Assembly (NCBI GenBank): GCA_963730605.1
Contig: CAVSSM010000001.1
Location: 320,001-384,000, forward strand
Reading direction: 5' to 3'
DNA: 64,000 nt
DNA from: an uncultured Chlamydiae bacterium
GTDB lineage: Bacteria; Chlamydiota; Chlamydiia; Chlamydiales; SM23-39
Part shown: in pieces, positions 57,091 through 58,635 of the stretch
How the letters are laid out: every line of letters begins with the position of its first letter
How positions within the stretch are numbered: the first letter of the stretch is position 1
Made by a program: the position numbers and the translations under genes
Notes under the pieces: model-generated
The model's database searches: none
The model's input: the letters and a program-made list of their open reading frames with translations, nothing else
What the model was told of the DNA's origin: nothing

Positions 57091-58635
57091 TTATTTTTCA
57101 AGCAATGCAATATTTTCTATATGGGGCGTATGAGGGAATTGATCGACGGGCTGGAGTCTTTTGACCCGATACCCCGCTTGGACGAGTTCTTCGATGTTGG
57201 AAGCTTGGGTCACTGGGTTGCAAGAGATATACACGATCGATTTTGGAAGTAAATTTTTTAAATGATGAATGGCCTGAGCGTCAAGTCCGGCGCGCGGCGG
57301 GTCGACCAGGACCGCATCAGGCCTTAACGAGCCCGGAGCCTCGATCAATTGAGCGATCGTGTGGCCCGCGTCGCCTTGATGGATGGTCATATTCTCGATC
57401 CGGTTTGTCTTAAGATTTTCATTTGCGTCGAGGACGGCTTCCGGGCTAAGTTCGATTCCGACCACTTGCTTTGCACTCTTGGCTGCGGCCATCCCTAAAG
57501 CTCCTATTCCGCAATAAAGATCGTAGACGACCGATGGGCTCCCGAGCAGGGAGATCGCCACATCGTACAACTTTTCTGCTTGGAACGTATTGGGTTGAAA
57601 AAAGGAACTCGGACTGATTTTGAAAAGGAGGACGCCTTGTTTCAGATGAAGCTCTTCGACGATATGGTCAGGCCCGCTGAGGAGCATCTCAAAAACTCGT
57701 GTTTTATGCCCTAATTTAGCCTGGTGGATGCGCAAGAAAATCGCAGCTTCGGGCGCGAGCCCCCGTATCGACTCGGCAAACTCTTCGAGATTATCTCGAG
57801 ATGGGGCGAAGTCCGGATGGCCAGAGACGTTGAGGATCGCCATTTTTTGCCCTGTGCGCACCGCTTCCCTGAGTGTTAAATATCGGAGGGTTCCTGAGTC
57901 TTTGGGAAGATAATAGGCCGAAAGAGAGCTACCTTCCCACCACTTGCGGACAGATACAGCCGCGGCGGCAAACCAGGGCGGGCAAAGATGGCATTCGGTA
58001 ACATTGAATACATAGGGCGTTGCTTGGGCTATCCCCAAACCCAGGAAGCGAGCGCCCGCCCCATTTTGGGAGAAGGTAAACTCCATTTTGTTCCTGTAGC
58101 CGAACGGATAAGTAGCGGGAAGGATCGGATCGACGGGAAACTTCCCGTCGAATGCCCGTTCGATGCGGCGCATCTTTTCCTTGAGCTGGGCGCTATAGGC
58201 GACCTGTTGCCAAGTGCAGCCGCCGCAAACCGTTGCATGGGCGCAGCGGGGATGCGCCCGATCTGCGGATGGGGCCACGACTTCCAAGAGGCGCCCTTTC
58301 TGTATCCTATGCCTTTTTTTCCTCCACTCGACCCGAACGGTATCGCCCGGAACGCAGTGGGCCACCTCGATTTCGTGCCCTTTGCCAAGAAGCGCGACGC
58401 CGTATCCTTTTTTCGAAAATTTTTGAATGGAGATCTCTAAAGTCTCTTTTGGCTTTGAACCTATCCCACTAATAAGTTTCAGTCGATTTTTCGGTTCTTT
58501 TGAGCCGATTTTCGATTCAAGACTTGGGGGGCAATATCGACAGCAGTATATGGCCCCCCAAGCTTTGAAGTCGAAAAGCGACCAAAATAATCCAAAAACT
58601 CGACGAAAAATATTAGTGGGATAGGTTCTGTGCAT
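57091..58635 (-). CDS. rlmD: 23S rRNA (uracil-C5)-methyltransferase carrying a 58-aa N-terminal palindromic insertion
   Basis: TRAM domain, 'CAHATVCGGC', 'YRNKMEF', 'SFFQPN', 'DPPRAG', 'YISCNP', 'DQFPHTPHIE'. Confidence 0.93.
   Translation of the reverse strand: MHRTYPTNIFRRVFGLFWSLFDFKAWGAIYCCRYCPPSLESKIGSKEPKNRLKLISGIGSKPKETLEISIQKFSKKGYGVALLGKGHEIEVAHCVPGDTVRVEWRKKRHRIQKGRLLEVVAPSADRAHPRCAHATVCGGCTWQQVAYSAQLKEKMRRIERAFDGKFPVDPILPATYPFGYRNKMEFTFSQNGAGARFLGLGIAQATPYVFNVTECHLCPPWFAAAAVSVRKWWEGSSLSAYYLPKDSGTLRYLTLREAVRTGQKMAILNVSGHPDFAPSRDNLEEFAESIRGLAPEAAIFLRIHQAKLGHKTRVFEMLLSGPDHIVEELHLKQGVLLFKISPSSFFQPNTFQAEKLYDVAISLLGSPSVVYDLYCGIGALGMAAAKSAKQVVGIELSPEAVLDANENLKTNRIENMTIHQGDAGHTIAQLIEAPGSLRPDAVLVDPPRAGLDAQAIHHLKNLLPKSIVYISCNPVTQASNIEELVQAGYRVKRLQPVDQFPHTPHIENIALLEK
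58457..58628. mobile_element. Palindromic element inside rlmD: family A core with GAACCTATC-type ends
   Basis: 18-bp TIR gaacctatcccactaata / tattagtgggataggttc. The core matches 43779-43898. Confidence 0.9.

Follow-up and report, generated by a model that had tools for sequence, protein, structure and literature searches.

The rlmD gene and its palindromic insert

We analyzed a stretch of 64,000 nucleotides from an uncultured Chlamydiae bacterium (assembly GCA_963730605.1, contig CAVSSM010000001.1, positions 320,001 to 384,000), hereafter the window, in which a miniature inverted-repeat transposable element (MITE) separates the start codon of the gene rlmD from the rest of the gene. The source genome (2.2 Mb, 12 contigs, 50% G+C, 83% complete) contains many related elements. 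The rlmD reading frame passes through the MITE uninterrupted, the gene appears to have stayed under selection with the insert in place, and RlmD is probably translated from its old ATG through the element, gaining a disordered N-terminal tail. The open reading frame (ORF), its possible start codons and the parts of the insert, including its terminal inverted repeats (TIRs), are located as follows.

57091..58635, minus strand: rlmD ORF, 514 codons with the insert included (ORF list, TIGR00479, PF05958 and alignment with RumA 1uwv)
58633..58635, minus strand: ATG start of rlmD, the start codon of the orthologs, now separated from the gene body
58363..58365, minus strand: GTG codon 91, the first canonical in-frame alternative start, inside the TRAM domain
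58457..58628, no strand assigned: 172-nt chimeric MITE, a near-perfect palindrome, codons 3-60 (arms, RNA fold, family alignments and TIR search)
58457..58474, no strand assigned: B-type TIR GAACCTATCCCAC..., ATG-distal end, common to 16 other elements starting GAACCTATCC
58475..58602, no strand assigned: core, belonging to MITE family A (genome BLAST and alignment)
58603..58628, no strand assigned: B-type TIR, ATG-side end (TIR search and family alignments)
58455..58456, no strand assigned: copy 1 of the target-site duplication, TT on the plus strand (TIR search)
58629..58630, no strand assigned: copy 2 of the target-site duplication, TG on the plus strand (TIR search and empty-site comparison)

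The ORF is assigned, from profile and alignment evidence, to RlmD/RumA, the 23S rRNA (uracil1939-C5)-methyltransferase, with a predicted activity on U1939. This identity had been proposed in a preliminary description of the window made from the DNA letters alone, and it is borne out by the TIGR00479 (RlmD) profile, which scored 250.8 bits on the ORF product, above its cutoff of 183.55. Profile positions 3-432 aligned to residues 75-507, position 3 falling on residue 75, and a PF05958 methyltransferase domain was found at residues 322-514 (E = 1.8e-30). Homologues of solved structure begin to align at residues 62-63 of the product: residue 14 of RumA 1uwv matches residue 63, and residue 4 of SP_1029 matches residue 62. 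Across 28 aligned RlmD sequences, the window's included, the cysteines C131, C137, C140 and C215 were invariant, and so was the motif S471-C472-N473-P474; by analogy with RumA, we take these to provide the Fe-S ligands and the nucleophile. The translation of the ORF reads MH-RTYPTNIFRRVFGLFWSLFDFKAWGAIYCCRYCPPSLESKIGSKEPKNRLKLISGIGS-KPKETLEISIQKFSKKGYG, exactly the layout given in the preliminary description. That description had also noted the lack of an in-frame ATG, GTG or TTG ahead of the TRAM domain, and indeed none occurs in codons 2-90, the first being the GTG at codon 91, already within that domain.

The net insertion amounts to 174 nt (58457-58630), made up of the 172-nt element and a duplication of 2 nt; it adds 58 codons without a stop. 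It had been placed two codons after the ATG and called stop-free; the latter is correct, but the junction actually lies inside codon 2, between bases 5 and 6 of the ancestral ORF. The palindromic nature of the 58-codon insertion is well founded. Its inverted arms (58457-58537 and 58548-58628) measure 81 nt each and are 72% complementary, and as RNA the element folds at -104.2 kcal/mol (z = -11.6), a stability reached by none of 200 shuffled versions. Terminal inverted repeats GAACCTATCCCACTAATA...TATTAGTGGGATAGGTTC lie at 58457 and 58628. The target-site duplication is imperfect (TT/TG, one mismatch): on the gene strand it is AA, the ATG-side copy now being CA, and this single changed base converts codon 2 from CAA (Q) to CAC (H). 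Among the six frames of the element only one is open over the 58 codons, and it is the frame that rlmD uses. A search of the element against Rfam gave no family at the gathering score, the best hit being a generic miRNA-like hairpin (31.8 vs 67.5 bits). Also, one sigma-70-like site was found inside the element on the gene strand (58574..58545), where 0.5 are expected by chance, which is no evidence for a promoter.

The rlmD insert is a MITE: it has TIRs, a target-site duplication, many copies in the genome, an insertion sequence (IS) with matching ends in the same genome and empty sites in relatives, and it contains no transposase gene.

Empty sites, a second insert-bearing lineage and selection on rlmD

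The preliminary description had proposed aligning RlmD with its orthologs, and this comparison defined the insertion to the base. In the closest ortholog (locus L032 of genome G003, protein 88% identical), the start region reads ...gcgttaatgtattctctttggcATGCAAAAGCC, or ...gcgttaatgtattctctttggcATGCAAAAGCCAAAAGAG, i.e. MQKPKETLEISIQKF, also given as ATGCAAAAGCC. The window reads ...ggcATGCA + 174 nt + AAAGCC at the same place, with AAAGCCAAAAGAG following the 174 nt. The insert was absent from all 12 orthologous loci inspected, the empty site being ATGCA followed directly by AAAGCC. The proteins of these 12 loci start M-x-x, a few residues ahead of a conserved IQxF motif. Among the ortholog matches in 30 related genomes, none started before query residue 48, and among 103 genomes of the family a match joining the insert to RlmD was found in the window's own genome only.

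Read data added further empty sites. Run X6, from soil, contains a 689-nt contig (about 91% identity to the window) in which position 58456 is joined to 58631, with exactly 174 bases skipped, and a second contig of this run has 44 other letters where the window has 204. For contigs assembled from reads, junction support was set at 31 letters. In runs X1-X4 the contigs were short and of low depth; none reached this length at either end, and no empty-site joint was seen. The nearest was a 90-nt contig of run X2, which covers 58599-58688 with zero mismatches and extends 30 nt into the element, one short of 31. At 80% likeness, runs X5, X6, X7 and X10 yielded empty-site relatives and no second insert-bearing lineage. 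Among RNA runs, none was found to cover the locus.

Such a lineage was found in the protein database, where one other sequence, P0001 (514 aa, from JGI assemblies, on 2 contigs), carries the insert. It is identical to the RlmD of the window at 468 of 514 residues (91%), without gaps, leaving 46 differing residues. P0001 starts MHRTYPT and thus shares the insertion site, the orientation and the altered codon 2. Within the insert, 4 of 58 residues differ (N8H, S19P, C31R, C32R). The simple reading of this comparison is that both lineages inherited a single insertion. A metagenome scan retained 80 loci at 32-68% identity, and the contig of P0001 was not among them.

The differences allowed us to evaluate selection at the protein level. 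The 28 RlmD sequences were aligned and the conservation of each column was computed from the 26 sequences other than the window's and P0001, over 452 comparable columns. The two insert-bearing proteins differ in 42 of these columns. Differences occurred in only 1 of the 120 columns conserved at 90% or more, vs 32 of the 139 columns conserved below 50%, and the mean column entropy was 2.30 at differing sites vs 1.29 elsewhere (Mann-Whitney p = 1.8e-10). All 514 codons are open in both genes. Because the differences avoid conserved columns, rlmD is judged, on this comparison of two sequences, to have been under purifying selection since the insertion. The gene having been kept under selection with its insert, the protein would therefore still be made and needed.

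Probable translation through the element and its alternatives

The gene upstream of rlmD and an older RNA structure around the start codon bear on how translation would begin.

58651..58875, minus strand: hctA, encoding a histone-like Hc1 protein (PF07432 Hc1, E = 6.9e-16)
58637..58645, minus strand: CCUCUUUGG, 5' half of the old stem whose loop contains the AUG (window and G003 ortholog folds)
58444..58452, minus strand: CCAAAAGAG, codons 62-64, 3' half of the old stem (same folds)

Hc1 is a chlamydial protein, and its presence marks the genome as that of a chlamydia. The TAA stop of hctA lies 15 nt ahead of the rlmD ATG, and the spacing from stop to ATG is identical in L032, L033 and L034. 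In the insert-free ortholog, the rlmD AUG is held in the loop of a 9-10-bp stem, CUCUUUGGC / GCCAAAAGAG (L032 around 1515-1550). The element landed in the loop of this stem, which now lengthens the MITE hairpin. An AUG enclosed in a stem that costs about 15 kcal/mol to open, 15 nt past the hctA stop, hints at translational coupling of rlmD to hctA in the ortholog.

A needed protein must start somewhere, and the old ATG is the only canonical start before the TRAM domain; for these reasons read-through from the old ATG is the likeliest course, and we regard it as probable. In the mechanism that we propose, a 172-nt MITE would have inserted within codon 2 of rlmD with the frame preserved, and initiation would take place at the old ATG, the sole canonical start. 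Ribosomes would load while the 3' arm of the hairpin is still untranscribed, or through coupling to the termination of hctA translation 15 nt upstream, and the elongating ribosome would then unwind the hairpin. The free energy needed to open the region -15..+15 around the AUG is 7.2 kcal/mol while only the 5' arm has been transcribed.

The resulting tail would hang ahead of the TRAM domain and leave the fold undisturbed. In an AlphaFold2 model computed from an alignment (pTM 0.82), pLDDT was below 50 for residues 1-59, block means were 84-98 from residue 61 onward, and strands start at residue 64, so that the 58-residue tail is predicted to be floppy or disordered and the RlmD fold to be intact. 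The tail is basic (10 K+R vs 3 D+E) and rich in aromatic residues. A signal peptide or membrane anchor was considered and rejected, the 19-residue hydropathy maximum being only 1.13.

Several observations weigh against translation through the element. The open frame is weak evidence when taken alone: the insertion always adds 174 nt, and about 1 in 6 random insertions would look alike. When the full mRNA is folded, a 7-nt internal loop flanked by the 9-bp stem and the -104 kcal/mol hairpin contains the AUG, and opening -15..+15 costs 29.7 kcal/mol in the complete mRNA vs 15.0 in the ortholog, roughly twice as much; initiation on fully folded mRNA may thus be very poor according to these folding models. 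Also, if the 5' end of the gene with its insert was exchanged between the lineages by recombination, some of the divergence that underlies the selection test would be older than the insertion. The differences between the window and P0001 are dense just behind the insert (residues 83-128), and we saw no sign of a recent transfer tract. Lastly, the insert is better conserved than expected of an indifferent tail (4 of 58 residues vs 32 of 139 variable columns, Fisher p = 0.008), and its divergence is indistinguishable from that of the whole protein (4 of 58 vs 42 of 452, p = 0.81). Between the window and G003, 26.7% of the four-fold sites of rlmD differ at a protein divergence of 12.3%; scaled to the 9.3% protein divergence between the window and P0001, the neutral divergence of these two would be roughly 20%. 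In simulations with at least 10% neutral divergence, 4 or fewer changed codons were obtained in at most 0.24% of trials. This conservation may be explained by selection on the DNA or RNA hairpin, by gene conversion from the numerous other copies or by selection on the peptide. One could imagine that the insert has been put to use, as hairpin, peptide or both, and for this purpose was kept far below the neutral expectation in the two lineages; we consider this improbable. One possible use would be a gate, in which RlmD is made only when the AUG stem is melted by ribosomes completing hctA, the late-stage histone gene. If this were true, such an hctA-linked gate would tie rRNA methylation to the developmental cycle.

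An alternative is that the tail is not made, and that translation starts at a non-canonical codon in or just behind the 3' arm (CTG52, ATT55, ATA58, ATC68 or ATT70), giving a protein of near-normal length. These codons are present in frame, among the full set of non-canonical candidates (ATT9, ATA29, ATC43, CTG52, ATT55, ATA58, ATC68, ATT70, ATC89). If translation began at ATC68 or ATT70, the N-terminus would have about the length of the shortest one among the orthologs, MESKVQSF (L040). The old AUG is poorly accessible once the mRNA is folded, and RlmD is probably required only in small amounts. However, such codons initiate far below AUG in the bacteria tested, no recognisable Shine-Dalgarno sequence precedes any of the candidates, and codons 52-58 lie within the paired 3' arm. 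The sequence behind the element is moreover as in the orthologs, where it is ordinary coding sequence, and nothing in it appears adapted to a new start. We thus hold a non-canonical start to be unlikely. Silencing of rlmD by the insertion is, in our opinion, more doubtful still: the gene would then be a young pseudogene or be expressed at a negligible level, and its intact frame would be a leftover. The burial of the AUG in a strong structure speaks for it, as does the fraction of about 1/6 of random insertions that stay stop-free. Escherichia coli tolerates the loss of RlmD/RumA, and a second RumA-family paralogue, 34% identical, is encoded at G000:C7:105173-106474. This paralogue is also present in insert-free relatives, so it is not a replacement. 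Furthermore, two lineages differing at 46 of 514 residues both keep the 514 codons without stop or frameshift, their differences avoid the conserved columns (1/120 vs 32/139), and neither an invariant cysteine nor any residue of the S471-C472-N473-P474 motif has been lost.

The preliminary description had also offered bypass or processing of the hairpin, by which the ribosome would hop over it, or it would be removed from the mRNA, and a protein of normal length would be made from the old ATG. Only the high stability of the hairpin right next to the start codon speaks in its favor. No stop follows the possible take-off site, take-off and landing codons do not match, and no Rfam family is reached at gathering level. 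The insert is a typical MITE, the remaining copies lie between genes, and a skipped insert would not need to be stop-free and to keep the frame. We give this explanation very little credence. Still less should be granted to an assembly artefact, in which a repeat would have been mis-joined into rlmD in a metagenome bin. It is true that the element is repeated about 35 times, that repeats attract mis-joins, and that the read depth is low. But on either side of the element the orthologous locus picks up at the exact base, with a 2-nt duplication, the same insert occurs in a different protein, P0001, from other assemblies and on 2 contigs, and the mismatch-free contig of run X2 runs across 58599-58688 and 30 nt into the element. 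Translation of RlmD from the old ATG through the MITE remains the explanation that we favor.

MITE families and comparison with known systems

The core of the rlmD insert recurs at 35 BLAST loci in the genome, mostly 94-98% identical, and most of these matches begin at about 58475, where the ATG-distal TIR ends. A search for terminal repeats gave 43 full-length elements: 26 belong to family A, and 17 have B-type ends. Family A elements carry GAGGGTGTCTAC... at their ends and most often measure 174 nt, and 24 of 26 copies are flanked by a perfect 3-nt TNA duplication. The 17 elements with B-type ends (GAACCTATCC...) show a perfect 2-nt duplication of any sequence in 16 cases, and 14 of them are near-identical 170-nt copies with a core unrelated to that of A; this near-identity suggests a very recent burst. 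Two elements are chimeras, the rlmD copy and G000:C4:74149-74320, which is 90% identical to it; in both, an A-type core is bounded by B-type ends measuring 18 and 26 nt. Recombination and nested insertion of one MITE into another are candidate origins for different ends on one core. A third end variant around the same core was observed at G000:C2:431847-431979. The TIR search also returned, by a chance match, an open frame of 558 residues at G000:C10:62409-64588 that includes a very long stretch of proline (about 100 P). Other full-length copies in the window, and the copies of the candidate partner IS in the genome, are the following.

43029-43203, 43754-43926 and 52201-52375 of the window: family A, full length
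61636-61805 of the window: family B, full length, 170 nt
G000:C10:15600-16514, C2:345239-346153, C7:209443-210357 and C10:3688-4599: 915-bp IS copies

The 915-bp IS has the ends GAGCCTATCCC, the MITE having GAACCTATCCC. Its two overlapping frames correspond to DUF4096 (E = 7.3e-16) and DDE_Tnp_1 (E = 7.3e-6), which places it in the IS5 family, and 2-nt duplications were seen at 3 of the four copies inspected. Judging from the shared ends and duplication length, this IS likely supplies the transposase for the B-ended MITEs.

The 43 elements were examined frame by frame, and the five most suggestive were read individually. Only the rlmD copy lies inside a recognisable gene, the other 42 do not, and coding insertions are thus the exception for families A and B. 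Elements within long open frames of G008, G014 and G002 (M20 peptidase, DnaE and malic enzyme) were considered and rejected, as they actually precede the true start or lie at the 3' end. In G008, from another genus of the family, the same chimeric element type was observed at G008:C5:8670-8849 and G008:C55:1862-2035 (L051, L055). Read in the rlmD frame, these elements are 84-85% identical to the insert of the window, whereas the RlmD of G008 is only about 64% identical; this contrast suggests movement of the element between lineages or a slow rate of evolution.

The insert had been called directly analogous to the Rickettsia palindromic elements (RPE). The analogy holds for its in-frame effect: as in RPE, a short palindromic repeat extends a housekeeping gene without shifting its frame, contributes a peptide and persists beyond a single lineage. 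A parallel case is an RPE-7-like insert in PheT of all Rickettsia (PMC1779305). The analogy does not extend to the element itself. The host phylum is different, and the rlmD element has clear TIRs, a target duplication and an IS5-family partner. Also, it lies at the extreme N-terminus, between start codon and gene body, and only 1 of the 43 copies of families A and B is found in a gene, while nearly half of the RPEs of three families lie in genes according to PMC10969869. By the features tested, the rlmD element is not a member of the RPE families.

The element is closer to bacterial MITEs such as ERIC, BOX, QMITE1 and the Anabaena MITEs, which according to the same source (PMC10969869) are likewise non-autonomous, with inverted ends, a duplication and many copies. 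Unlike them, it is a chimera of two families and has no match in Rfam. With the 915-bp IS5-family IS it shares near-identical ends and 2-nt duplications, but it encodes no transposase. No paper on chlamydial MITEs was found, by title or start of abstract, in a full-text search pairing MITEs with Chlamydiae. In-frame fusions of MITEs with host ORFs are described as 'not unusual' in a 2024 review (PMC10969869), and this kind of event has long been known from Rickettsia, so our data change no concept. Particular to the rlmD case are the position between start codon and gene body, the chimeric build and the evidence of selection after the insertion. It provides a clean natural example of continued selection on a gene whose start codon and first domain have been separated by a very stable mobile hairpin. 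The case would add the Chlamydiae and an IS5-type MITE to the bacteria whose selfish palindromes become protein parts, and it offers a simple system for studying how ribosomes initiate beside, and read through, a structure of -104 kcal/mol.

Beyond hctA, the window contains a 365-codon ORF ending in F at 58969-60066 on the plus strand, the C-terminal half of which resembles an outer-membrane barrel by eye. In the 5' part of this ORF (59060-59170), the sequence ccaccccaaa(g/a)acgatgcgt(c/t)tt(c/t)gggg occurs as two near-repeats.

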